The position numbers and the translations under genes are program-made. The notes beneath the pieces were generated by a model. The model was not told the DNA's origin and did no database searches. It was given only the letters and a program-made list of their open reading frames with translations. A DNA stretch of 11,662 bases from a virus (taxonomy: Duplodnaviria; Heunggongvirae; Uroviricota; Caudoviricetes): IMG/VR virus record IMGVR_UViG_2695420859_000009, one strand, 5' to 3'. Shown here one piece after another: positions 1 through 11,662 of this stretch (the stretch's first letter is position 1; every line of letters starts with the position of its first letter).

Positions 1-116
1 CTGGCTTCATTGGCCCATTTCAGATCCTGCGCTGCATTAATTTTCTGGTGCATCCACTCATAAAGTTCATCATCGGTATAGTCTGGCGCGATGATGACGG
101 GTTCTCGTTTCTGCAT
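1..116 (-). CDS. Hypothetical prophage protein, N-terminal 38 codons only (gene continues past the window start)
   Basis: ATG at 116..114 (minus) preceded by GAGGAA Shine-Dalgarno 5 nt upstream; open frame to the window edge translating MQKREPVIIAPDYTDDELYEWMHQKINAAQDLKWANEA. Not in the ORF track because it is truncated. Confidence 0.45.
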   Translation of the reverse strand, partial: MQKREPVIIAPDYTDDELYEWMHQKINAAQDLKWANEA

Positions 117-145
117 ACTGATTCCTCGCGGTGCTGTTTCGCTTA

Positions 146-274
146 TCAGCCGTTAGATTTTGCCGAACTGGAAAGCGCCTGTTTAAATTCGTTGAAGCTG
201 AGAGCTTCTTCGCCTTCGGCAAGACCTTCGAAGTATTCTTCGTAAGCCTTTTCCATGATTGTGTCGAAATCCAT
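146..274 (-). CDS. Small hypothetical protein, 42 aa (MDFDTIMEKAYEEYFEGLAEGEEALSFNEFKQALSSSAKSNG), acidic; Rac-type small early-left ORF
   Basis: Hand translation of the minus strand: ATG at 274..272 with GGTGA-like SD, stop TGA at 148..146. Below the track size cutoff. Codon usage looks enterobacterial. The ydaF/ydaG-type naming is a guess from memory and is not assigned. Confidence 0.45.
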   Translation of the reverse strand: MDFDTIMEKAYEEYFEGLAEGEEALSFNEFKQALSSSAKSNG

Positions 275-275
275 A

Positions 276-431
276 TCACTCACCTGAGTTTCTTTCCAGC
301 CAGCGACGGGCACCATTTTCGGTTTTAAACGTTTTGCTTTTGTTATACGTCATCGCGGTGAACGTACCGTCCTGGTTGGGGAACACGCCACATACCAGAG
401 ATTCGCTGTTGCCAAGATCGATAGTATCCAT
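276..431 (-). CDS. Small hypothetical protein copy 1, 51 aa (MDTIDLGNSESLVCGVFPNQDGTFTAMTYNKSKTFKTENGARRWLERNSGE)
   Basis: Lies inside track ORF 276..512 (minus). The internal ATG at 431 has a GAGG SD a few nt upstream and is the more likely start. A near-identical paralog lies 335 bp away. Confidence 0.5.
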   Translation of the reverse strand: MDTIDLGNSESLVCGVFPNQDGTFTAMTYNKSKTFKTENGARRWLERNSGE

Positions 432-516
432 GCTGACCTCATTTCCCCTTAACGCCGGGGTAGCGGAACAAAAACCTGCTGCATAGTTATTAAAGTTGAA
501 CCCTGCCGTCATGTTC

Positions 517-609
517 TTACGCCTCGGGCTGGCTACTTAACCCCTGACCACTGCCTGGTAACTCGAAGTATTCTTCGTAAGCCTTTTCCATGATTGTGTC
601 GAAATCCAT
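517..609 (-). pseudogene. Duplication-generated 5' fragment of the 146..274 gene: first 15 codons (MDFDTIMEKAYEEYF) fused to 15 unrelated codons, then stop
   Basis: The unit junction at 563/564 cuts the copy of the small gene after codon 15. Minus-strand translation from ATG 609 gives MDFDTIMEKAYEEYFELPGSGQGLSSQPEA, stop at 519..517. Confidence 0.4.
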
Positions 610-610
610 A

Positions 611-766
611 TCACCCACCTGAATTTCTTTCCAGCCAGCGACGGGCACCATTTTCGGTTTTAAACGTTTTGCTTTTGGTATACGTCATCGCGGTGAACGT
701 ACCGTCCTGGTTGGGAAACACGCCGTACACCAGAGATTCGTTGTTGCCAAGATCGATAGTATCCAT
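611..766 (-). CDS. Small hypothetical protein copy 2, 51 aa (MDTIDLGNNESLVYGVFPNQDGTFTAMTYTKSKTFKTENGARRWLERNSGG)
   Basis: Paralog of 276..431 inside track ORF 611..847. Differs from copy 1 at four residues (S9N, C14Y, N30T, E51G) plus three synonymous sites. Confidence 0.5.
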   Translation of the reverse strand: MDTIDLGNNESLVYGVFPNQDGTFTAMTYTKSKTFKTENGARRWLERNSGG

Positions 767-949
767 GTTGACCTCATTTCCCCTTAACGCCGGGGTAGCG
801 GAACAAAAACCTGCTGCATAGTTATTAAAGTTGAACCCTGCCGTCATGTTCTTACGCCTCGGGCTGGCTACTTAACCCCTGACCACTGCCTGGTAACTCG
901 AAGTATTGCCCTGCATTCTGTGGGGTGGGGTGGGTTGGTATGAAAGGAA

Positions 950-989
950 GGATACCCATGGGTATCCAAAAAGTAAATACCCATGGGTA
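950..989. promoter_or_regulatory. Two operator-like palindromes (GGATACCCATGGGTATCC at 950..967; TACCCATGGGTA at 978..989) overlapping a candidate leftward promoter
   Basis: A perfect 18-bp palindrome and a perfect 12-bp palindrome sharing the core TACCCATGGGTA, centres 25 bp apart. On the minus strand they overlap TTTACT-N17-TATCCT, a weak sigma70-like promoter pointing at the small leftward genes. Confidence 0.45.
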
Positions 990-1031
990 ATTTTTTGATG
1001 TGTCTTAACTGGTGACTGGTTGTTTGGTGAG

Positions 1032-1451
1032 TTATGATGCGTTTTGTGCTTTCTTTTTACGGATTTCTTCGTAGATCATATTGTAATACTGTTTTTTCTC
1101 TTCAAGAGTTTTTAATAAGTTATCCGCTTCACTTTCTGGCAGTTCGTCTAAGAGATCTAAAAAAATACGTTGTCGTGGCGTTAGAACCCTTGTTTCATAA
1201 TTGGAGGCTGTGTTCGTTGATGATGAAACGATACCATCCATCCATCCCCGGGGTAACCCAAAGGACTCTTCTATAATCTCCACCATATCATCAGCGATCC
1301 GTTTTTTTCCTTTTTTCCCCTCTGGGTACAACATTCTTGATACATAAGAAGGCTCGCGACCGATCTTTCTGGCCACGTTAACCGCTTTACCATCGCATTT
1401 CTCATCACGAATTTTGATGAGTTGTTGTCGTCTAAATTCATATTTGTCCAT
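1032..1451 (-). CDS. racR: RacR-like prophage repressor (cI-type immunity repressor)
   Basis: Track ORF 1032..1493 (minus). The product from MDKYEFRRQQLIKIRDEKCDGKAVNVARKIGREPSYVSRMLYPEGKK matches my memory of Rac prophage RacR. ATG at 1451 is preferred; the track start at 1493 is a TTG and would place an operator-like site (1472..1483) inside the coding region. Start is uncertain. Confidence 0.75.
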   Translation of the reverse strand: MDKYEFRRQQLIKIRDEKCDGKAVNVARKIGREPSYVSRMLYPEGKKGKKRIADDMVEIIEESFGLPRGWMDGIVSSSTNTASNYETRVLTPRQRIFLDLLDELPESEADNLLKTLEEKKQYYNMIYEEIRKKKAQNAS

Positions 1452-1471
1452 AGGTAAATAATAGATGCGAT

Positions 1472-1528
1472 TACCGCAAGGTAAACAACCCAAGGGTATT
1501 GACTTTTGTTTACCTGTGGGTATTCTTT
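1472..1528. promoter_or_regulatory. Divergent promoter/operator region between racR and ydaS: three operator-like sites and a rightward -35/-10
   Basis: Sites TACCGCAAGGTA (1472..1483), AACCCAAGGGTA (1487..1498) and TACCTGTGGGTA (1511..1522) share TACC-N4-GGTA with the palindromes at 950..989. A candidate rightward promoter, TTGACT (1499..1504) with TATTCT (1521..1526) 16 bp downstream, overlaps the third site, just upstream of the ydaS SD AAGGAG. Confidence 0.4.
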
Positions 1529-1551
1529 GCTGTGTTTACTAAGGAGTAGCT

Positions 1552-1833
1552 ATGGAAGAATTAAGAATATTTCTCAATTCTCTTTCGTCAGATGAACAGC
1601 GTATGTTTGCATGTGAGTGTGGTACTAGCATCGGTTATCTAAGAAAGGCATTGAGTAAAGGTCAAATGTTAGGGGCATCGTTATGTGTCCTTATTGAGCG
1701 AGCCAGTAATGGTGAAGTTACACGTCAGCAACTAAGGCCTTTTGATTGGATGAATATTTGGCCCGAGCTGGAAGATACCAAAACGTTAACACAACCACTT
1801 ACTAGGAGCTTGATTCATGAAAATCAAGCATGA
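1552..1833 (+). CDS. ydaS: YdaS-like small HTH protein (Cro-like, first gene of the rightward operon)
   Basis: Track ORF with AAGGAG SD upstream of the ATG. It sits divergent from the repressor and upstream of a ydaT-like gene; the sequence matches my memory of Rac YdaS. Confidence 0.75.
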   Translation: MEELRIFLNSLSSDEQRMFACECGTSIGYLRKALSKGQMLGASLCVLIERASNGEVTRQQLRPFDWMNIWPELEDTKTLTQPLTRSLIHENQA

Positions 1834-2242
1834 ACACATCCGCATGGCGATGAATGCCTGGGCGCGTCCTGATGGCGAAAAAGTTCCAGCAGCTGGAATA
1901 ACCCAGGCTTATTTTGAGTTGGGTATGACGTTCCCAGAACTGTATGACGACAGCCATCCGGAAGCCCTGGCTCGCAATACCCAGAAAATTTTCCGCTGGG
2001 TAGAGAAAGACACCCCTGATGCAGTTGAAAAAATTCAGGCGTTGTTACCAGCGATCGAAAAGGCAATGCCACCTTTGCTGGTGGCCAGAATGCGCAGCCA
2101 CAGTTCAGCTTATTTTCGGGAGTTGGTGGAGACGCGGGAGCGACTGGTGAGAGACGCTGATGATTTTGTCGCAGTGGCAATCGCCGGTTTCAATCAGATG
2201 AACCGTGGTGGCCCGGCAGGAAATGCTGTGGCAGTACATTGA
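1817..2242 (+). CDS. ydaT: YdaT-like protein (toxic when derepressed in Rac)
   Basis: Track ORF overlapping the ydaS end by 17 nt, with AGGAG SD. Order and size match the Rac racR-ydaS-ydaT module. Confidence 0.75.
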   Translation: MKIKHEHIRMAMNAWARPDGEKVPAAGITQAYFELGMTFPELYDDSHPEALARNTQKIFRWVEKDTPDAVEKIQALLPAIEKAMPPLLVARMRSHSSAYFRELVETRERLVRDADDFVAVAIAGFNQMNRGGPAGNAVAVH

Positions 2243-2313
2243 CTGACAATAGCCATATCGAATCGCTTCCGGCAATTCGTGAGTAAAAAGATTCGGTATC
2301 AGAAGAGGTGAGT

Positions 2314-3384
2314 ATGGCTAACGCCTGGCTCAGATTATGGCATGACATGCCAAATGACCCTAAGTGGCGAACAATTGCCAGGGTGTCAGGGCAGCCAATT
2401 GCAACAGTGATGGCAGTGTATATCCACCTCCTGGTGAGCGCGTCACGAAATGTCACGCGAGGTCACATTGATGTCACGACAGAAGATTTGGCAAGTGCGC
2501 TCGACGTGACAGAAGAGGTAATTGATTCAATTTTGCAGACGATGCAGGGGCGGGTACTTGATGGTGATTTAATCACTGGATGGGAAAAACGCCAGGTGCT
2601 TAAAGAGGACAACGGCAATATTTCGCAAACCGCAAAATCTCCGGCAGAGCGCAAGAGGGCGCAGCGTGAGAGGGAAAGAAAGCGGGAACAAAATGGCGAT
2701 TGTCACGGCGCGTCACGAAATGTCACGCACATGTCACGACGAGTCACGACAGATAAAGATACAGATAGAGATACAGATAAAGAAGATCAAAACACTATGG
2801 TCCATGGCGTAAAAAACGCCACGAACCATGTAGGGGATGTTCAGACCGTCACTCCTGGCCAGCCCGCAGGCACGACACCGGAAGCCGATTCAGCGTATGC
2901 GCTGAAAGCCGATTCGGGCGCTGTGCAGCAGGCGATGACCGCTGGGCCGGAGCAATCACACCAACTGCAGCAGCCTGAAGCCGATTCCGCCATTCAGCGG
3001 GAAGCCGATCGGGTAGTCCCGGAAAACACCGGGCAGCCTGTGGGACGAGTGGATTATCCGGATGTGTTCGAACAGGTCTGGCGGGAATACCCGTTACGAG
3101 CCGGGGCAAACCCGAAGAAATCCGCTTTCAGTGCCTGGAAGGCCAGATTACGCGAGGGGGTGCCACCAGAGGCCATGCTGGATGGTGTAAGGCGTTACAC
3201 AAGATACCTGGCTGCTACCGGGAAAACGGGAACGGAATTTGTTCAGCGAGCGACGACGTTTTTTGGACCGGACCGGAATTTTGAAAACCCCTGGTTGCTC
3301 CCGGTAAGCGGCACGAACAACCAGCGTTGTGTTAATCATATTTCTGAACCGGACACCGAAATTCCGCCGGGATTCAGAGGGTAA
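2314..3384 (+). CDS. Phage replication initiator, lambda O-like (iteron-binding N-terminal part, acidic linker, C-terminal domain)
   Basis: Track ORF 2308..3384; ATG at 2314 with GAGGTGAG SD is preferred over GTG 2308. Two iteron clusters and an AT-rich GATA-repeat tract (encoding DKDTDRDTDKEDQ) lie inside the gene, as for ori-lambda inside gene O. It directly follows the immunity/cro-like operon. Confidence 0.65.
   Translation: MANAWLRLWHDMPNDPKWRTIARVSGQPIATVMAVYIHLLVSASRNVTRGHIDVTTEDLASALDVTEEVIDSILQTMQGRVLDGDLITGWEKRQVLKEDNGNISQTAKSPAERKRAQRERERKREQNGDCHGASRNVTHMSRRVTTDKDTDRDTDKEDQNTMVHGVKNATNHVGDVQTVTPGQPAGTTPEADSAYALKADSGAVQQAMTAGPEQSHQLQQPEADSAIQREADRVVPENTGQPVGRVDYPDVFEQVWREYPLRAGANPKKSAFSAWKARLREGVPPEAMLDGVRRYTRYLAATGKTGTEFVQRATTFFGPDRNFENPWLLPVSGTNNQRCVNHISEPDTEIPPGFRG
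2439..2480. repeat. Iteron cluster 1: GTCACG repeated at about 10-bp spacing
   Basis: GTCACG at 2442, 2452 and 2473 plus GTCACA at 2462. The 21-mer CGCGTCACGAAATGTCACGC is repeated exactly in cluster 2 at 2709..2729. Confidence 0.5.
2701..2800. repeat. Iteron cluster 2 (5 x GTCACG at 10-11 bp spacing) followed by an AT-rich GATA/GATACA repeat tract; candidate origin of replication
   Basis: GTCACG at 2702, 2712, 2722, 2733 and 2743, then AGATAAAGATACAGATAGAGATACAGATAAAGAAGATCAAAACACT (2751..2796). Iterons one helical turn apart beside an AT-rich unwinding element is the classic ori layout. Confidence 0.5.
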
Positions 3385-3421
3385 CAGATTTCAGGTCATG
3401 GGGTAATTTTCAGGAGGGCTT

Positions 3422-3697
3422 GTGGCAAAAGTTTTTACTCCCGAACTGCGGGAAGAAGTGAAGGCGCGCATTGTGGAACTGGTACGCAGAGATGGGCGAA
3501 AAACGCGTAAACAACTGGAAAATGAAACCGGGGCGACGAGACACCTGATAGAAGTTCTGGTGAAAGAGCTGGTAGTTAGTGGCGCAGTATATGGTTCAGG
3601 ACATGGAATATTTCCTTCGGAGCAGGCTCGTAAGGACTGGGGAAAAGCCCGCAAAAAAAATGTCGAGAGCGGCAGTGAAAAAGAAGAGCGACCCTGA
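3422..3697 (+). CDS. Small basic protein (91 aa, possible winged-helix DNA-binding), possibly frameshifted into the next ORF
   Basis: Track ORF; GTG start at 3422 with a strong AGGAGG SD 4 nt upstream. The frame ends shortly after an A8 homopolymer (3653..3660), and the +1 frame stays open for another 56 codons. Confidence 0.4.
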   Translation: MAKVFTPELREEVKARIVELVRRDGRKTRKQLENETGATRHLIEVLVKELVVSGAVYGSGHGIFPSEQARKDWGKARKKNVESGSEKEERP

Positions 3698-3830
3698 CCT
3701 GATTTATTCATTGCTAGATGGCGAAATACGCCGTTACAACAGACGACAGAATATAATTTGTCGCGAGTGTCGTCAGAGCGAAGTTATGCAGCGCATACTG
3801 GAATTTTATCAGGGAAATGTTCGGTATTAA
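3579..3830 (+). CDS. Overlapping-frame ORF; its 3' two-thirds (from about 3660) may be the C-terminal continuation of the 3422 gene
   Basis: Track ORF 3579..3830 overlaps 3422..3697 by 119 nt in the +1 frame. The tail LIYSLLDGEIRRYNRRQNIICRECRQSEVMQRILEFYQGNVRY looks protein-like. There is no good RBS for an independent start. Confidence 0.3.
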   Translation: MAQYMVQDMEYFLRSRLVRTGEKPAKKMSRAAVKKKSDPDLIYSLLDGEIRRYNRRQNIICRECRQSEVMQRILEFYQGNVRY

Positions 3831-3974
3831 TTGAAGTGACGAAATTAAAGAGCATTAGTTCAGATATTAATTGACACTTCGATGGCACAGGCCCAGACCT
3901 AGTCTGGTTGTCAGCTTTGAGCTAGGTGAACGTTGGTATCGTTAGTTTGTATTAATCAACGGAGAATAGGCCAA

Positions 3975-4005
3975 ATGACTTTTCTTTGCCTCTTTTAATT
4001 ATAAT
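3975..4005 (+). promoter_or_regulatory. Candidate sigma70 promoter in the AT-rich tract upstream of the 932-aa gene
   Basis: Perfect TATAAT at 4000..4005 with an ATGACT/TGACTT -35-like element 18-19 bp upstream (3975..3981). The gene SD AGGAA at 4063..4067 lies 6 nt before ATG 4074. Confidence 0.3.
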
Positions 4006-4073
4006 TCAAGTTCAATTGATTACATTGAAGTACTAATGTGAGTCCGTCAAACAAATAGCTCAAGGAATAGGTC

Positions 4074-6872
4074 ATGTGGGGAAGTGAAAACAAACAAAAT
4101 CTGGACGTACTGGATCCTGTGCAGTTGGTGCGTATCGAAGCGGTACACCGGGGGTTCCTTTACCAGCATCTTTACGCTGTAGGCTGCTTACTTTTGGCGC
4201 AGAGGGCAGCTATGGACTCAGTAACTGTCGAGCTTGATGAGGATATTGAGCTGAAATCCAAACAGGAACGTCTCTACATTCAGGTTAAAACCCGTTCAAA
4301 ACCTATTATGCCCAACGATGTGTCGGGGGCTCTGGAGCGATTTGTAAAGCTCAGAAATGAGCATACTTCGGCAAACCGCGAAGGGGTGGCTTCTTTTGTG
4401 ATTATTGTAAACCAGGCGCCTGGACCGCTGCTTCAGAAGATGATTGACGATAAAAAGCTTCCTTCTGATGTTCTTATTGTCTGGCCCCAGTCGACAGCTG
4501 GACGTCACCCGGCACTTCCGCCCGCATGGAGTACTCTGGCTGATGCGGCCACATGGTGTATCGCAGAAGCAGAAAAGCTGAAATTTTCACTATTGTCCCC
4601 AGAATCCTTGATTTGGAAGTTAGCAGGATTGGTTCAGCTTGCCGCCACCGGAGGCGATACCAATGGACAACATACGTTTTTCACGGAAGAACTTACTGAA
4701 CTATTTGAACAGTTGATCGTTCAGCTACAGGACTTTCCTGCACCACCAGCACTGTACCGCCCACAGAACGAAGAACCTTCTCTCACATCTGGTGAGCGGA
4801 TCCGTATCCTTTGTGGACTCTCAGGTGCAGGCAAGACAGCTTGGGCCGCACAGGCCGCATTACACTCCACTGCACTTTGTGCTTATTACGACACCGGTGA
4901 TCTTCCCGGTCCAGCTCTGGCCAGTACGCTGGTGCGCGAGATGGCTGCTAGATTTACAGCCCGTGACCAAGACGGTTTGCGCAGGATTTTGCTCCCCGGT
5001 GCCAGTGGTTTTGAGGCTCTTAGGAGTTTTGATACCTACCTGAAAGAGCAGGGTACCACCTTGGTGCTGGTTCTGGATAACGCCCATCGTGTACCTGCGG
5101 AAAATCTACTGGATGTTCTGAATGCAACTACACATATTCGTTTTGTGCTGTTGTGCCAGCCTCACGAAAACGTTCGCGAACTGGAGGTCATGACGGGGCT
5201 ACAGCGCGAGGGCCTGCAGGGATGGAATCTCGATACGGTAGCTGTCGTTGTAAACGATATCGGAGGATTTGCCACCGCTATGGGATACGAGCAGCTACGG
5301 GCTTACACTGGTGGTCTTCCCCTGTATGTAGAGAGCGCCGCAAAAATCGCCGTTTCTGATTATGAGCGTAATGTCGATGCTCTGTGTGCTGAACTCCAGC
5401 AACAAACCCATACTGCGGAAACCGCCCAAGAAATTATTCTGTCACGTGTATTTCAGGGATTTGAATCACTACTTCAGAGCGCGCTGGCATTGTTCAGTCT
5501 CTCTGACGTAGGGCTGAGTCGCGAAGAGATTTCTACGCTCCTAATCAATTCGCTGAACATTTCACCAAGCAGTGCTGCTTCTTTAATTAGGAAAATGCGC
5601 GCTACTGGCACTATTGAAATTTATGGAAACCAGACCCTGAAGGTACATGATGCTGTCAGGGGGCTAGGACTGCAACATCTGGAACTGATGGATCAGGGTA
5701 TATCGAACAAAGCGCTACTAGCGCTGAAAGACCTTTTAGTTGAAAGTCTTCATAATACCCGCAATACAAAACGGTTATCGTTGTTGACTCAACTTTATAT
5801 TAAGCTCAATGATGTCACGACGTTGATCGAACTCTCAGGCCAAGAAATGTTTTATGAGATGGGCGTGACGGTCGACATTCTTGCAAGCTTGGAGCGTGCT
5901 GCAACATCGGACTTATTGGGACCTGTTCATAAATTCTGGGCATTGGATGGCCTTGTTTTCGTTGAGCTTAAAGACGGAATATCCGACCACATTGCTCAGA
6001 GGTTAAACATCATGGGAGCTTTACTTGCGGAGCACAAGTTCGGCTATCAAGAAGAGATGGCCTATGCAATGAAACGAATGTTATTTTCGGCAGAAAGCAA
6101 TGATGCACGAGAAGTTCAAAAGCTGGCACAGGAAGTCCGCCCCCAACTCCCAGATGAAGAACATAAACGCATCTTTGACTACAACCATGCCATTGCACTC
6201 TGGAGATTAAAAAAACTCAAGGATGCTGAAACATTAAGCTGTAATGTTATACAAGGGTACTATTCTTTATTTGGTATCACACCTGCTGATGTCATAGGAA
6301 AAAACGCCGACGCATTATGGAAAACTATTAATCATTCCGAAAATATGCAGGAACACTTTAAACATATGGCTGATGCTCTGGAGTTGCTGGCCAGAATTCG
6401 TGATGCGCAGGGAAAACTGTCACCATTACTGCGTATTCATTCGATGAAGTTCTACAATCTGGCCATGGCCCCGGAATCCATGGTCAGGGTGGGCCAAGAT
6501 CTGGCGGATGAGTTTGTTGCCATAAAGGATTACGACGGTGCCAAGGAAGTCATGGAGCAACATGTCCTGCCGGTTGTCAATGAGGCAGGTCTAGTACATC
6601 GACTGATTCAGGTTCGAAGCCAATACGCAGTCATATTAGCACTATCGGGTCAGCATAAAGCAGCTGATGTCGAAATGCAGCGCCTTGCTCCCTATATCGA
6701 AGGCCTCACAGGTGTACAGCGTCAAGAAATCCAAAATCAATCAAATTACATCGTACAGCTTGCCCATAAAGCAGCAAAGACTAAATTAACTGAAGTTTTT
6801 GGTGCGGTCGGCCGGAATGAACAATGCCCCTGTGGCTCGGGAATAAAGTACAAAAAATGTCACGGTGCCTGA
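4074..6872 (+). CDS. Large multidomain protein (932 aa): N-terminal PD-(D/E)xK-like nuclease-type region, STAND/NB-ARC-like P-loop NTPase, helical repeat region, C-terminal SEC-C zinc-binding motif; candidate single-gene antiphage (Avs-like) defence protein
   Basis: Track ORF with AGGAA SD. Walker A GLSGAGKT (residues 248-255, nt 4815..4838); Walker B LVLVLDN (D335 at nt 5076..5078); GLPL motif at residues 413-416 as in NB-ARC/STAND NTPases. N-terminal GFLYQ...VELDEDIELKS...IQVK resembles Cap4/Mrr-type nuclease signatures (from memory). Terminal CPCGSGIKYKKCHG (residues 918-931, nt 6825..6866) matches the SEC-C motif. About 450 residues of the C-terminal half are predominantly helical by eye. 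The gene is flanked by AT-rich intergenic DNA. Confidence 0.85.
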   Translation: MWGSENKQNLDVLDPVQLVRIEAVHRGFLYQHLYAVGCLLLAQRAAMDSVTVELDEDIELKSKQERLYIQVKTRSKPIMPNDVSGALERFVKLRNEHTSANREGVASFVIIVNQAPGPLLQKMIDDKKLPSDVLIVWPQSTAGRHPALPPAWSTLADAATWCIAEAEKLKFSLLSPESLIWKLAGLVQLAATGGDTNGQHTFFTEELTELFEQLIVQLQDFPAPPALYRPQNEEPSLTSGERIRILCGLSGAGKTAWAAQAALHSTALCAYYDTGDLPGPALASTLVREMAARFTARDQDGLRRILLPGASGFEALRSFDTYLKEQGTTLVLVLDNAHRVPAENLLDVLNATTHIRFVLLCQPHENVRELEVMTGLQREGLQGWNLDTVAVVVNDIGGFATAMGYEQLRAYTGGLPLYVESAAKIAVSDYERNVDALCAELQQQTHTAETAQEIILSRVFQGFESLLQSALALFSLSDVGLSREEISTLLINSLNISPSSAASLIRKMRATGTIEIYGNQTLKVHDAVRGLGLQHLELMDQGISNKALLALKDLLVESLHNTRNTKRLSLLTQLYIKLNDVTTLIELSGQEMFYEMGVTVDILASLERAATSDLLGPVHKFWALDGLVFVELKDGISDHIAQRLNIMGALLAEHKFGYQEEMAYAMKRMLFSAESNDAREVQKLAQEVRPQLPDEEHKRIFDYNHAIALWRLKKLKDAETLSCNVIQGYYSLFGITPADVIGKNADALWKTINHSENMQEHFKHMADALELLARIRDAQGKLSPLLRIHSMKFYNLAMAPESMVRVGQDLADEFVAIKDYDGAKEVMEQHVLPVVNEAGLVHRLIQVRSQYAVILALSGQHKAADVEMQRLAPYIEGLTGVQRQEIQNQSNYIVQLAHKAAKTKLTEVFGAVGRNEQCPCGSGIKYKKCHGA

Positions 6873-7149
6873 GTCTTTGTACGACCATGCGGGCCTTATT
6901 GTCTTGCTATTGCTCTTATGGTTCGCCTTTCTGATTGATTTCATATTGGCGAGGTGACGGGAGTTAAGTAGAATGGCTGCGGGTGCTTGAGGCTATCTGT
7001 CTCAGGCATGAACACCAAAGGCAGATAGAGAAAAGCCCCAGTTAACATTACGCGTCCTGCAAGACGCTTAACATTAATCTGAGGCTCAATCTATGAACGG
7101 CAAATCTAGGTTAGCCTCTTACGTGCCGAAAGGCAAGGAGAAGCAGGCT

Positions 7150-7305
7150 ATGAAGCAGCAAAAGGCGATGTTAATCGTCCTGATCGTCATCTGTTTAACC
7201 GTCATAGTGACGGCACTGGTAACGAGGAAAGACCTCTGCGAGGTACGAATCCGAACCGGCCAGACGGAGGTCGCTGTCTTCACAGCTTACGAACCTGAGG
7301 AGTAA
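7150..7305 (+). CDS. hokD: Hok/Gef-family type I toxin (51 aa membrane peptide)
   Basis: MKQQKAMLIVLIVICLTVIVTALVTRKDLCEVRIRTGQTEVAVFTAYEPEE matches the Hok/RelF family as I remember it. SD AGGAG at 7136..7140. The track ORF 7093..7305 adds an in-frame 19-codon 5' extension. Downstream rem-like and ydfU-like genes fit the Qin hokD neighbourhood. Confidence 0.85.
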   Translation: MKQQKAMLIVLIVICLTVIVTALVTRKDLCEVRIRTGQTEVAVFTAYEPEE

Positions 7306-7373
7306 GAGACCAGGCGGGGGAGAAATCCCTCGCCACCTCTGATGTGTCAGGCATCCTCAATGCACCCGCACTT

Positions 7374-7400
7374 AACCCGCTTCGGCGGGTTTTGTTTTTT
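7374..7400 (+). terminator. Rho-independent terminator / 3' stem-loop of the hok mRNA
   Basis: Stem CCCGC (7376..7380), loop TTCG, stem GCGGG (7385..7389), followed by TTTTGTTTTTT (7390..7400). Confidence 0.55.
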
Positions 7401-7472
7401 CCTGGCATTCTGGTTTACAATTCGCACGCCAGCCTGAACAACTGGCACCTGCTGCGCCAGCAGAGACAACCG

Positions 7473-7751
7473 ATGGCGCACGATACCAAATTACACAATT
7501 CTAATGATTCTGCTGTCTTTGCCAGCAGGTGCGGACGGCGTTTTCACGCATTCACATCAGACTGGTTCCAGCATCCTCCATGCACTGAAGAGCAGGCTGA
7601 ATGGATAATTCAGTGTTACCGCAGGCGTGGATACGAGGTTAAGAAAGCTCTTAGTCTCGACTATCGTCACTGGATAATCTCAGTCAGACTCCCTTACTCC
7701 GAACGCCCACCGCGTCCGTCCCGCACATTCCAGCAACGCATCTGGAGGTAA
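7473..7751 (+). CDS. Small hypothetical protein in the rem position of Qin-like prophages (92 aa from ATG 7473)
   Basis: Track ORF 7344..7751, but its first 43 codons span the terminator hairpin, so the internal ATG at 7473 is preferred. Its SD is weak. The rem-like call rests on synteny only. Confidence 0.4.
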   Translation: MAHDTKLHNSNDSAVFASRCGRRFHAFTSDWFQHPPCTEEQAEWIIQCYRRRGYEVKKALSLDYRHWIISVRLPYSERPPRPSRTFQQRIWR

Positions 7752-7752
7752 C

Positions 7753-8808
7753 GTGCGGGTATTACTTCGACCTGTTCTGGTACCGGAACTCGGGCTGGTG
7801 ATCGTTAAGCCGGGCCGTGAATCCATGCCGGTATTCCACAATACCCGGGTACTGGTGGAGCCGGAACCGAAAAGCATGCGTAATCTGCCGTCCGGGGTCG
7901 TTCCTGCCGTTCGCCAGCCGCTGGTGGAAGACAAAACATTGCTGCCGTTTTTCAGTAACGCACGGGTGATTCGTGCTGCTGGTGGTGCTGGTGCATTGTC
8001 TGACTGGCTGTTGCGCCATATTAAATCCTGCCAGTGGCCACACGGCGATTATCATCACAGCGAAACCGTCATTCACCGTTATGGTACCGGCGCAATGGTG
8101 TTGTGCTGGCACTGCGACAACCAGTTGCGTGACCAGACCTCCGAATCACTCGGGCAACTTGCTCATCAAAACCTGTCAGCATGGATGATTGACGTCATCG
8201 GTCACGCAATAAGCGGTACGCAGGAGCGTGAATTATCTCTGGCTGAATTATCCTGGTGGGCGGTCCGCAATCAGGTGGCGGACGCGCTACCGGAAGCGGT
8301 ATTACGTCGTTCGCTGGGGTTGCGTGCGGAAAAAATCCGCTCAATGTACCGTGAAAGCGACATCGTGCCGGGAGAGCAGACCGCCACCAGCATACTGAAG
8401 CAGCGCACAAAAAATCTTGCGCCGATGCCTCACGCCCACCAGCAAAACCCGCCACAGGAAAAGACGGTGGTAAGCATTGCCGTTGATCCGGAGTCACCGG
8501 CTCAGTATCTCCAGCGCCAGAAACCACAACGGGAAGAGATGCCCGTATACACGCGCTGGGTAAAAACGCAGAAATGCATGACGTGTGACAATCAGGCAGA
8601 TGATCCGCATCACATCATTGGTCATGGACTAGGAGGGATGGGAACGAAGGCTGACGATTTGTTTGTTATTCCGCTGTGCCGTAAATGTCATAACGAACTG
8701 CACGCCGGGGTAAAAGATTTTGAAGAAAAACACGGCAGCCAGCTGTTGTTGCTGATTCGTTTTTTAATGCACGCGAGAAATTCGGGCGTCCTGAAGTGGA
8801 AAGCATAA
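7753..8808 (+). CDS. ydfU: YdfU-like DUF968 protein with a C-terminal HNH-type nuclease motif
   Basis: Track ORF with GTG start and GGAGG SD. C-terminal CMTCDNQADDPHHIIGHGLGGMGTKADDLFVIPLCRKCHNELH (nt 8575..8703) has the C-x2-C ... HH ... C-x2-C-H-x3-H arrangement of HNH nucleases. Size (351 aa) and position match Qin YdfU as I remember it. Confidence 0.7.
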   Translation: MRVLLRPVLVPELGLVIVKPGRESMPVFHNTRVLVEPEPKSMRNLPSGVVPAVRQPLVEDKTLLPFFSNARVIRAAGGAGALSDWLLRHIKSCQWPHGDYHHSETVIHRYGTGAMVLCWHCDNQLRDQTSESLGQLAHQNLSAWMIDVIGHAISGTQERELSLAELSWWAVRNQVADALPEAVLRRSLGLRAEKIRSMYRESDIVPGEQTATSILKQRTKNLAPMPHAHQQNPPQEKTVVSIAVDPESPAQYLQRQKPQREEMPVYTRWVKTQKCMTCDNQADDPHHIIGHGLGGMGTKADDLFVIPLCRKCHNELHAGVKDFEEKHGSQLLLLIRFLMHARNSGVLKWKA

Positions 8809-9174
8809 ATGACTGAACGCATAGAATTTGTTTTGCCTTACCCGCCAACGGTGAATACTTACTGGCGACGTCGTGGCAGCACATATTTTGTATCAAAAGT
8901 CGGTGAGCGTTATCGCCGTGATGTGGCACTAATTGTTCGCCAGCAGCGGTTGAAATTAAACCTGTCCGGAAGGCTGGCAATAAAAATTATTGCAGAGCCA
9001 CCGGATAAGCGCCGTCGTGACCTGGACAATATCCTGAAGGCACCACTGGATGCACTGACGCATGCGGGGCTGCTCATAGACGACGAGCAGTTTGATGAAA
9101 TCAATATTGTGCGCGGTCAGCTTGTTCCTGGTGGGCGGTTGGGGATAAAAATCACAGAACTGGGGTGCGCATGA
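8809..9174 (+). CDS. rusA: RusA-family Holliday junction resolvase
   Basis: 121-aa product with LPYPPTVNTYWRRRG, PDKRRRDLDNILKAPLDALT and GGRLGIKITELG, matching RusA motifs (catalytic acidic cluster around RRRDLDN). The start ATG abuts the ydfU stop (TAAATG). Confidence 0.85.
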   Translation: MTERIEFVLPYPPTVNTYWRRRGSTYFVSKVGERYRRDVALIVRQQRLKLNLSGRLAIKIIAEPPDKRRRDLDNILKAPLDALTHAGLLIDDEQFDEINIVRGQLVPGGRLGIKITELGCA

Positions 9175-9860
9175 ATAACCAGTATTTACAGTTTGTGCGT
9201 GAGCAGCTCATTATCGCCACCGCTGATTTGAGTGGGGCAACAAAAGGTCAGCTTGAAGCCTGGCAGGAGAATGCCATGTTCGATACAGGGCGTTACAGGC
9301 GTAAAAAAATCCGGTACCGCGATGAAGTGACTGGAAAAATGATAACGCGGGATAATCCCCCAATCCCGGGAAAGCAATCGCTGGCGAAGGGGACGTCAAT
9401 TCCTCTGGTCAGTCCGATTGAGTTTTCGACATCATCGTGGCGGCGGGCTGTTCTGTCTCTTGAAGAACATCATAAAGCCTGGTTGTTGTGGTGTTACAGC
9501 GGGAGTATTTGTTGGGAATATCAGATCGCGATAACACAGTGGGCGTGGAATGAATTTAATACTCAATCCGGTACCAGAAAAATTGCAGGGAAAACGCAGG
9601 AACGCCTGAAAAAATTAATCTGGCTGGCGGCGCAGGCAGTAAAAGCAGAACTTTTTGGTGGGGAAGGTTATGAATACAAGGAGCTGGCATTACTGGTGGG
9701 AGTGACAACTAAAAACTGGTCCAAAACATTTACTCGTCACTGGGTTGCAATGAAACACATTTTTCACCGACTGGATAGTGAGGCTTTATTGTTTGTAATG
9801 AGAACGCGTTCAAAACAAAAGGCGGCATTTTCAAAGCAAAGTGTTGCAAAAGTAGATTGA
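9171..9860 (+). CDS. Late-gene antiterminator Q-like protein (function inferred mainly from position)
   Basis: Track ORF 9165..9860. ATG 9171 overlaps the rusA stop (ATGA). It is the last gene before a promoter, a short-transcript terminator and a tRNA cluster, which is the layout downstream of Q in lambdoid and Stx phages. The sequence itself is not confidently recognised. Confidence 0.5.
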   Translation: MNNQYLQFVREQLIIATADLSGATKGQLEAWQENAMFDTGRYRRKKIRYRDEVTGKMITRDNPPIPGKQSLAKGTSIPLVSPIEFSTSSWRRAVLSLEEHHKAWLLWCYSGSICWEYQIAITQWAWNEFNTQSGTRKIAGKTQERLKKLIWLAAQAVKAELFGGEGYEYKELALLVGVTTKNWSKTFTRHWVAMKHIFHRLDSEALLFVMRTRSKQKAAFSKQSVAKVD

Positions 9861-9872
9861 AAGGCATATATT
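9844..9872 (+). promoter_or_regulatory. Candidate late promoter (pR-prime-like) overlapping the end of the Q-like gene
   Basis: TTGCAA (9844..9849), 17-bp spacer, TATATT (9867..9872). The terminator about 55 nt downstream would give a short leader transcript, as at lambda pR-prime/tR-prime. Confidence 0.3.
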
Positions 9873-9923
9873 TCATGCAAATCTGATATTTTGCCGATTT
9901 TGTACGTGATGGCAAAAGCAAAC

Positions 9924-9950
9924 AAAACCCGCCCACAAGCGGGTTTTTTT
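9924..9950 (+). terminator. Rho-independent terminator (tR-prime-like)
   Basis: AAAA CCCGC CCACAA GCGGG TTTTTTT: 5-bp GC stem (9928..9932 / 9939..9943), 6-nt loop, 7-T run (9944..9950), with flanking A/T extension. Confidence 0.75.
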
Positions 9951-10070
9951 GTGCCACTTATCTCGGATAGACATGGTGAATGCGCTGGTGGAGGAAGCAA
10001 GGGTAATTTTTAACCAGGTGATTCTTGAATGCTTGCAACATTGATTTCGTAACGTTATTATCCTGCGCCC

Positions 10071-10146
10071 GGCCCTTTAGCTCAGTGGTGAGAGCGAGCG
10101 ACTCATAATCGCCAGGCCGCTGGTTCAAATCCAGCAAGGGCCACCA
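10071..10146 (+). tRNA. tRNA with CAU anticodon, closest to Ile2 (lysidine-type ileX/ileZ-like) rather than Met
   Basis: Cloverleaf folded by hand: acceptor GGCCCUU/AAGGGCC, anticodon loop CUCAUAA (CAU at 10104..10106), T-arm GCUGG-UUCAAAU-CCAGC, discriminator A, encoded CCA. Highly similar to E. coli ileX from memory. Confidence 0.8.
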
Positions 10147-10153
10147 TCACATA

Positions 10154-10230
10154 CCGCCATTAGCTCATCGGGATAGAACGCCAGCCTTCGAAGCTGGTTT
10201 CGCGGGGTTCGAGTCTCCGATGGCGGTCCA
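10154..10230 (+). tRNA. tRNA-Arg (anticodon UCG)
   Basis: Acceptor CCGCCAU/AUGGCGG, anticodon stem CCAGC/GCUGG with loop CUUCGAA, T-loop UUCGAGU, discriminator U, encoded CCA. Confidence 0.75.
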
Positions 10231-10243
10231 TTATCGGTATTCT

Positions 10244-10320
10244 GCGTTTTTAGCTCAGCCGGACAGAGCAATTGCCTTCTAAGCAATCGGTCACTGGTTC
10301 GAACCCAGTACAACGCACCA
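10244..10320 (+). tRNA. tRNA-Arg (anticodon UCU, argU/argO-like)
   Basis: Acceptor GCGUUUU/ACAACGC (one mismatch), anticodon loop CUUCUAA (UCU at 10278..10280), T-arm CUGG-UUCGAAC-CCAG, encoded CCA. Resembles argU from memory. Confidence 0.75.
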
Positions 10321-10489
10321 CACTTATTTTCCCTCGCTCGCTTTTGCGGACCTTTTTTGTATCCGCACCACGCCCGGCGCATACCAACCACAGAGCCTTT
10401 CGGGGGGAGCTTATGGAGTGGTCAGTGTGACTTTCTCTGTGGGCAGATCGCTCCCGGGCGTTGGCTCACCCACCCAAAGGAACGTCACG

Positions 10490-10922
10490 ATGTTTGGTAT
10501 TTTTGGTAAAAAAAGCCCGCAGAGCGGCAACGGAAATTAGAAAGTTTGAAAAACGCGATCTGGCACAGGTGGTGATTAACGCCGCATACCTGGTGGCCTG
10601 TGCAGATGGTGAATGTGAGGCTTCCTAGAAAGCGAAGATCGAACAGGTACTGCGTAATCAGCCTGCGCTGTACGCGTTTACGTCAGAAATTAATGCGATT
10701 AGCGCAACCATTATCGGTCAGCTGGATACGAACTTTAAAACTGGTCGTCGTGCGGCGTTACGTGAGATCGAGGATGTGAAACACGATACGCGTGAAGCGG
10801 AAGATGTGCTGGATGTGGCGGTGGCCATTGCGGAGGCAGACGGCGAAATTGAGCCGGAAGAGCGCAAGGTGCTGGAAGAGATTGCCGGTGTTCTGGGTCT
10901 TCGTCTGGAGAATTACCTGTGA
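10490..10922 (+). pseudogene. TerB-like (two ADGE motifs) gene disrupted by a frameshift at an A7 run and an in-frame amber codon
   Basis: ATG 10490 with AAGGA SD reads MFGIFGKKSPQSGNGN then stops. The other frame from the A7 run (10508..10514) reads KKARRAATEIRKFEKRDLAQVVINAAYLVACADGECEAS, then TAG at 10626..10628, then KAKIEQVLRNQ...VAVAIAEADGEIEPEERKVLEEIAGVLGLRLENYL to TGA 10920..10922. No ATG-initiated ORF covers the region, so the track misses it. Confidence 0.55.
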
Positions 10923-11086
10923 CGGTAAAACTGCGCCTGACTGTGGCTGCACTCCTGCTGTTTCTGGTGGTGATGGTGGATTTCACCAGCAGAATCATGT
11001 CGGTGCTGGCGGATGGGGTGCTGGTCTGCGGCATTATGGTATTGCTGTGGCCGGTGATAAAAAGAAACAGCCTGCATAATGCTTGA
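10919..11086 (+). CDS. Possible small hydrophobic (two-helix membrane) peptide, 55 codons from GTG or 37 from ATG 10973
   Basis: Open frame VTVKLRLTVAALLLFLVVMVDFTSRIMSVLADGVLVCGIMVLLWPVIKRNSLHNA with CTG-rich enterobacterial codon usage, overlapping the preceding stop (GTGA). No strong RBS. Confidence 0.25.
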   Translation: MTVKLRLTVAALLLFLVVMVDFTSRIMSVLADGVLVCGIMVLLWPVIKRNSLHNA

Positions 11087-11287
11087 TTTTTTTGTTTGCT
11101 GTTTATTAAAAACACTTCTGCATGGTGAATCCCCCTGTGCGGTGGGGCAATCAGCAAGAAGGAATATGGGGTAATCGCGGATTCAGGTGCTGATACTGAA
11201 TTCACCGGGAGGCACCCGGCACCATGCTTTGCCACAAAAGTGTTATTTCTGTTTTTCTCAAACTATCATCGTTATCCCTTTATTTTC

Positions 11288-11314
11288 GGCTGCGCATGGC
11301 GCGGCCTTTTTTTT
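11288..11314 (+). terminator. Candidate rho-independent terminator
   Basis: GGCTGCGC ATG GCGCGGCC (8-bp stem with one mismatch, 3-nt loop) followed by T8 (11307..11314). Confidence 0.45.
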
Positions 11315-11400
11315 ACGACCAGCCACTGGCAGATGGTCATCCTGTGATTTGATTCCGCTTCCGGCTTTTTAACTCTGTTCCTCTACACGGGAGAAATTCG

Positions 11401-11662
11401 ATGTCGATTAAACATTATGATGTTGTCAGGGCGGCGTCGCCGTCAGACCTTGCGGAAAAGCTGACACACAAACTGAAAGAGGGCTGGCAGCCATACGGCG
11501 GACCGGTTGCCATTACGCCGTACACACTGATGCAGGCGGTGGCTATTGAAGGAGAGCCACAGGTCGGCCCTTCATCTGAGCCGGATTGGTACTACGTCAT
11601 CGTACTGGCCGGGCAGTCCAATGCCATGGCTTACGGTGAAGGGCTTCCGCTGCCGGATTCAT
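11401..11662 (+). CDS. N-terminus of a NanS-p-like prophage sialate O-acetylesterase (DUF1737-type N-terminal domain, then start of SASA esterase domain); continues past the window end
   Basis: ATG 11401 with GGGAGA SD. Translation MSIKHYDVVRAASPSDLAEKLTHKLKEGWQPYGGPVAITPYTLMQAVAIEGEPQVGPSSEPDWYYVIVLAGQSNAMAYGEGLPLPDS includes the GQSN esterase motif. In Stx-type lambdoid phages this gene follows the Q-tRNA-stx region. Confidence 0.7.
   Translation, partial: MSIKHYDVVRAASPSDLAEKLTHKLKEGWQPYGGPVAITPYTLMQAVAIEGEPQVGPSSEPDWYYVIVLAGQSNAMAYGEGLPLPDS

Follow-up and report, generated by a model that had tools for sequence, protein, structure and literature searches.

The 335-bp tandem repeat described here, which doubles the small gene ydfA at the head of a prophage operon, is most likely not a biological feature of the prophage that carries it. 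From the sequence comparisons below, it is probably a chimera of assembly or gap closure, that is, a false join of two paralogous prophage copies. This explanation accounts for a junction that is a singleton, for relatives that hold a single copy, for two units that carry different alleles, and for a foreign tract that is centered on the join. The stretch of DNA analyzed, hereafter referred to as the window, corresponds in full to contig CYER01000050.1 (11,662 bp) from the draft assembly GCA_001283965.1.

Tandem Repeats Finder reported positions 228 to 907 as 2.0 copies of a 335-bp period, with 97% matches and 0% indels. A comparison of the window with itself at an offset of 335 resolved two head-to-tail units, 228 to 562 and 563 to 897, which differ by nine mismatches and no indels. 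Together with the translations of the open reading frames (ORFs), these analyses confirmed what a sequence-only reading of the window had described: two such units, nine differences without indels, and a doubled 51-codon gene. Repeat identity is cut off sharply at 227/228 and at 907/908, and a 335-bp repeat of such similarity cannot be due to chance. The mismatches (copy-1 coordinates 280, 288, 343, 381, 390, 391, 393, 406, and 433) are all confined to positions 280 to 433, which make up 154 of the 335 bp. Both unit ends have in common the 10-mer TCGAAGTATT, which is present at 228 to 237, 563 to 572, and 898 to 907. The novel junction sits on this 10-nt microhomology at 563 to 572, and the third occurrence, at 898 to 907, is the wild-type right boundary.

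Each 335-bp unit contains codons 1 to 15 of ydfB, one copy of ydfA, and the 131-nt ydfA leader. In unit 2, the allele is the resident (A-type) one apart from positions 615 and 623. We use A-type for the immunity of the resident prophage and X-type for prophages that carry the copy-1 allele and a different immunity region, with a WP_000233320.1-like repressor. Eight of the nine changes lie inside ydfA, where five nucleotides produce four amino acid replacements (C14Y takes both 390 and 391) and the changes at 288, 381, and 393 are synonymous; translation of the minus strand bore out the replacements S9N, C14Y, N30T, and E51G and the three synonymous changes that had been read from the letters. 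The remaining change, at 433, falls 2 nt before the ydfA start codon. As had also been noted, the junction truncates the neighboring gene after codon 15: codons 1 to 15 of ydfB are fused to 15 new codons from the ydfA leader, forming a chimeric ORF of 30 amino acids (aa) at 517 to 609 on the minus strand.

From its genes, the locus appears to be the promoter-proximal end of an early-left operon of the dicBF type in a lambdoid prophage. All of its genes in the window are on the minus strand. The window begins with the 5′ part of ydfC (1 to 116), which is cut by the contig end; the identical flank is annotated ydfC in the closest complete genome, NZ_CP148374.1 (locus L001). Next to it is an intact ydfB (146 to 274; 42 aa), whose exact protein, named YdfB, occurs on 998 contigs and whose identical L001 locus is annotated ydfB. 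Two 51-aa ORFs match the DUF1391 profile PF07151, namely, ydfA copy 1 (276 to 431), which encodes S9 C14 N30 E51, and ydfA copy 2 (611 to 766), which encodes N9 Y14 T30 G51 and whose exact protein is present on 221 contigs. Both belong to the YdfA/DUF1391 family by profile match and by identity to named members, each protein sequence recurring exactly, under the name DUF1391 family protein, on hundreds of contigs. The protein of copy 1 is placed in the YDFA_ECOLI cluster as one of two queried variants there, for which the counts, 684 and at least 1,000 contigs, are not assigned per variant. All three intact proteins (two YdfA and one YdfB) are exact matches to widespread E. coli proteins. A GAGG ribosome-binding site stands 6 nt upstream of each ydfA start codon (ATG at 431 and at 766). 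We preferred the 51-aa product with this ribosome-binding site over the 78-aa ORF of the draft record, and the RefSeq genes that relatives have at this position are 156 nt long.

Upstream of ydfA, in the position of dicA, is a 139-aa immunity repressor-like gene (1032 to 1451, minus strand), annotated in L001 at the same coordinates after adding 335 bp. A cro-like gene (1552 to 1833, plus strand) diverges from it, and this neighborhood suggests that the 1032-to-1451 gene acts as the immunity repressor. Downstream of the repressor, the window has ydfA, ydfB, and the 5′ part of ydfC, and dicB comes next in L001, whose flanks are identical. The annotated order in that genome is exonuclease, DUF1482, dicB, ydfC, ydfB, ydfA, and repressor, beyond which lie the divergent cro-like regulator, ydaT, a replication organizer, DUF977, a SEC-C protein, hokD, DUF968, rusA, Q, and three tRNAs.

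The dicBF operon of the Qin cryptic prophage of E. coli K-12 has the order ydfA-ydfB-ydfC-dicF-dicB-ydfD and is repressed by DicA/DicC (PMC5069750). The window is like the Qin operon in its gene order, with ydfB and ydfC after ydfA and then dicB in the relative that has both flanks, and in having a repressor gene of the same orientation just upstream, beside a divergent cro-like gene; the resident ydfA allele of its relatives encodes K-12 YdfA. The window departs from Qin in the immunity type of its repressor and operators and in having ydfA and codons 1 to 15 of ydfB twice. The dicF and dicB genes of a Qin-type operon fall beyond the end of this contig.

Two perfect TACCCATGGGTA palindromes (953 to 964 and 978 to 989) stand upstream of the operon, in the interval from the repressor gene to the ydfA leader, and two copies with 2 mismatches each (1487 to 1498 and 1511 to 1522) occupy the interval on the other side of the repressor gene, before the divergent cro-like gene. 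This layout resembles the OL and OR operator sets, and from it we infer that they may serve as such for the immunity type of the window. The duplicated unit stops ∼45 nt downstream of the left TACCCATGGGTA set and comprises the leader, ydfA, and the ydfB start only. Two functional elements were considered for the unit and rejected: a duplicated promoter, since the only promoter-like sites flank the repressor (∼1458 to 1526) and the operator palindromes (953 to 989) are outside the unit, and an RNA element in the duplicated leader, where there was no Rfam match in positions 1 to 1000 and the structure was not unusual (z = +1.25). The ydfA leader (434 to 562, 769 to 897, and 898 to 925) is invariant across five fetched loci with different repressor genes (L001, L004, L006, L007, and L012), unlike the ydfA coding part, which is a shuffled set of about a dozen single nucleotide polymorphisms (SNPs). 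At a DicA-type locus (L013), the leader diverges from position 470 onward.

Over its full length, the window aligns at 99.9% identity with the closest relative, NZ_CP148374.1, where the matching span is exactly 335 bp shorter and holds one unit. The flanks of this relative show 0 mismatches in 227 bp on the left and 3 in 10,765 bp on the right (3/10,992; 99.97% identity), the three differences being at 1933, 1936, and 8588. The first two are 3 nt apart in a ydaT-like gene, a spacing more suggestive of a very small conversion patch than of independent mutations. A second relative (NZ_CP148579.1) and the more distant strain FDN-4, which has the same immunity region, are single-copy, and all other A-type relatives examined are likewise single-copy with resident alleles. 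A comparison with related prophages had been proposed in the sequence-only reading; it brought out single-copy alleles in the relatives and the double-copy form only in this contig.

The junction itself was also found nowhere else. A 46-nt query centered on it had 0 matches in 5,426 complete E. coli genomes and 0 in 50,697 phage records; with identical settings, a 46-nt control from the wild-type right boundary matched 2,892 genomes. An exact 28-nt pattern of the junction was not found in species-representative genomes, IMG/VR, or JGI metagenomes. A looser 19-nt pattern had 4 matches (Flavobacteriaceae and Saprospiraceae metagenome-assembled genomes and two metagenome contigs), which we rejected as chance 19- to 20-mers with no further similarity. 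Among 15 billion proteins, the 30-aa chimeric protein forms a one-member cluster (CTY46912.1, “Uncharacterised protein”), and the single contig behind it is the window.

The two units carry alleles of different types. Bases 238 to 562, from copy 1, are 100% identical to an allele that is single-copy in 16 complete E. coli genomes, and strains C5 and FDAARGOS_1255 (L004 and L005), which have a different repressor, show no mismatch to window positions 1 to 562 plus 898 to 925. Bases 573 to 897, from copy 2, have no exact match in the 5,426 genomes. Their best matches, at 99.4%, include the closest relatives, L001 and L002, from which copy 2 differs only at 615 and 623. The C/A pair at these positions is typical of other allele types (strains 4/4, 2013C-3264, and Z1323CEC0015), and its combination with resident-type bases over 600 to 710 is present in two complete genomes. 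From 624 to 11662, the window equals the A-type relative except for 3 SNPs, and from 1 to 562 it matches the X-type exactly; the sides of the join, in other words, match paralogues that exist separately. All of the nonresident bases fall in a single unbroken tract that spans 343 to 623 and has the junction at its middle. A single foreign donor for this whole tract, which would have C/A at 280/288 together with the copy-1 bases at 343 to 433, was rejected: the predicted protein, S9 C14 N30 G51, is absent from the 15 billion proteins, the nearest natural alleles (L012 and L013) carry a G at 343, and no donor with a single copy could contain the junction.

When 17 variable sites were tabulated for ten loci, the SNPs turned up in many different assortments beside at least five immunity types; they are therefore old polymorphisms exchanged among paralogous prophages. 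On this comparison of alleles, the nine differences between the units are evidently such polymorphisms, swapped among paralogous prophages, and not mutations that followed a duplication. At the divergence of the flanks, ∼0.18 differences would be expected over two units versus the 9 observed [P(≥9), ∼5 × 10−13; Poisson test]; the differences were therefore imported rather than accumulated. The sequence-only reading had taken the 2.7% divergence of the copies as an argument against a very recent duplication and against an assembly artifact. Both arguments fail: the differences are preexisting alleles in a contig whose single-copy relative is 99.97% identical in the flanks, and a short-read mis-join of paralogous prophage copies would mix alleles in the same way. 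Its suggestion of “an older event or recombination between related prophages” is on the right track as to recombination, in that the copies carry different preexisting prophage alleles, and falls as to the older event. The case is a caution that divergence between tandem copies neither dates a duplication nor excludes an artifact when the segment has paralogues in the genome, every apparent “mutation” between these copies being a borrowed allele.

A false join would have had a favorable setting. The contig opens within ydfC. The segment in question is found in E. coli genomes in a median of 2 copies and as many as 9, and a multicopy segment at a contig start is the usual setting where short-read contigs break; contig size and record style point to short-read data. 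We envisage that the strain carries several lambdoid prophages in which the ydfC-ydfB-ydfA-leader segment would be nearly identical, with a few SNPs in ydfA. The contig would then run through the X-type ydfA allele (window position 1 to ∼572) and restart in the resident A-type ydfB (∼563 to 11662). The paralogous contig ends would truly have overlapped yet stayed unmerged because of the SNPs, and a greedy scaffolder and gap closer might then have fused both ends on the chance 10-nt identity TCGAAGTATT. A join on 10 nt is beyond a de Bruijn assembler by itself, and a chimera therefore needs a later merging step.

Tools for such a step have been described. GapFiller extends both edges of a gap base by base, checks for an overlap after each base, and closes the gap at an overlap of at least 10 nt (default), provided that the filled length fits the estimated gap within 50 nt (PMC3446322). 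The authors of a widely used pipeline of Velvet, SSPACE, and GapFiller noted that such tools work greedily and tend to make false joins, and they counted 4 to 10 misassemblies per test genome (PMC5320598). The 10-nt overlap at the junction equals the GapFiller default minimum, and the use of GapFiller on GCA_001283965.1 is only suggested by the style of the record (CT*/CY* accessions and “Uncharacterised protein”). The proposed chimera presumes the identity of the assembler and a lack of junction-spanning reads, and its weak point is that a false closure would also have to pass the GapFiller gap-size check. It also counts against a chimera that the odd left end of copy 2 could be a natural recombinant allele, given the two genomes with the same combination over 600 to 710. 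The window is like false duplications of the SSPACE/GapFiller type in being a draft contig, in a multicopy prophage segment, with different paralogous alleles, a 10-nt join, and a junction unique to the assembly.

Microhomologies of 10 nt are typical of real illegitimate recombination as well, and a real duplication of the same shape would look identical out of such a pipeline. Microhomology-mediated (RecA-independent) tandem duplication is known, as are the illegitimate recombination joints that create the mosaics of lambdoid phages. A very recent and private recombination at TCGAAGTATT, between two prophages or between a phage and a prophage, is thus a possibility, which we hold to be somewhat unlikely. 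The X-type partner would give the left arm up to the ydfA leader, and the A-type partner would give everything from ydfB codon 15 rightward; in a variant, the A-type prophage would first undergo an ordinary slipped duplication, and a paralogous prophage would then convert one of the two copies. The substrate for microhomology joining exists, as both 10-mers stand 335 bp apart in every single-copy relative; as in microhomology-mediated duplications, the head-to-tail units are bounded by a short direct repeat that preexists at both sites in the single-copy progenitor, and the partners would be related prophages. Exchange is frequent in the segment, as the shuffling of ydfA SNPs among prophages indicates, and the copies of the segment in E. 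coli genomes, a median of 2 and as many as 9, are potential partners. Both ydfA copies and their ribosome-binding sites are intact, and operon control would be kept, with the promoter and operator region outside the unit.

Against a real event stands, first, its timing: a rare illegitimate exchange between nonidentical partners, or else two events, would have to fit within the time of 3 substitutions per 10.8 kb. The two junction-proximal nonresident SNPs of copy 2 demand a further exchange. New microhomology-mediated duplications are born with identical copies, whereas those of the window are distinct alleles that differ from each other far more than the flanks differ from a relative (9 versus 0.18 expected). 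The joint was found in no second genome and had no independent support in the genome, phage, metagenome, and protein records searched, and its sole witness is a short draft contig in a multicopy region.

Were the join real, it could be a fresh illegitimate-recombination joint of two coresident lambdoid prophages, caught before selection or homologous collapse trims the 335 bp, a reading that we put forward only tentatively. It would then be a direct snapshot of a step thought to make the boundaries of phage mosaics and a minor example of arm exchange at microhomologies; the genes, the operon, and both candidate mechanisms are already known. The early-left transcript would be 335 nt longer and would encode two YdfA variants and the 30-aa YdfB(1-15) fusion before ydfB-ydfC-(dicF)-dicB. 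The small protein YdfA would be doubled at the head of a dicBF operon; with no function known for YdfA, no recognized phenotype is to be expected.

It is very improbable that the double copy is ancestral and that the relatives arose from it by collapse through a homologous crossover between the units at 289 to 342. The L001 unit, with copy-1 bases at 280 and 288 and copy-2 bases at 343 to 433, is indeed the predicted product of such a collapse, but that product is the commonest ydfA type, its protein being K-12 YdfA (YDFA_ECOLI in the cluster; WP_000379575.1 in relatives). The same allele, with the same nine bases, is found beside immunity regions that are unrelated and in A-type relatives that are more distant (L006, L014, and L015) and therefore predates the lineage of the window. 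Among the collections searched, there was no double-copy genome elsewhere. The older event of the sequence-only reading, taken as a tandem duplication in which point mutations then separated the copies where they lay and in which the four replacements might point to the two YdfA proteins diverging in function, would fit copies that are 2.7% different without indels and with both frames intact, but it has almost no credibility left given the 99.97% identity of the flanks to a single-copy relative, a copy 1 that is base for base an allele found single-copy in the 16 complete genomes, nine variant bases that all already segregate among single-copy prophage alleles, differences bunched in 154 of 335 bp, and the absence of the duplication from every other genome searched.

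Several other features of the window were recorded. An iteron-like array at 2442 to 2783, in which 10-nt repeats containing GTCACG are followed by a 12-nt repeat, lies within the 358-aa replication-organizer gene (2308 to 3384) and is probably the phage origin. The DUF977 gene (3422 to 3697, plus strand) is a 91-aa ORF in the window, is annotated as frameshifted in the two closest relatives (L001 6087 to 6495), and is intact at 138 aa in more distant relatives. Between the replication genes and hokD, a 932-aa protein is encoded at 4074 to 6872 (plus strand) that has a SEC-C motif and weak matches to Cap4 nuclease and AAA_22; it may be a defense-type cargo gene, and in one relative it is split by ISEc52. 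Rfam searches placed a sok antitoxin RNA adjoining hokD at 6981 to 7155 (110 bits), three tRNA genes downstream of Q at 10071 to 10317 (Ile, Arg, and Arg according to the annotation of a relative), and an STnc100 small RNA at 11091 to 11263 (100.8 bits).
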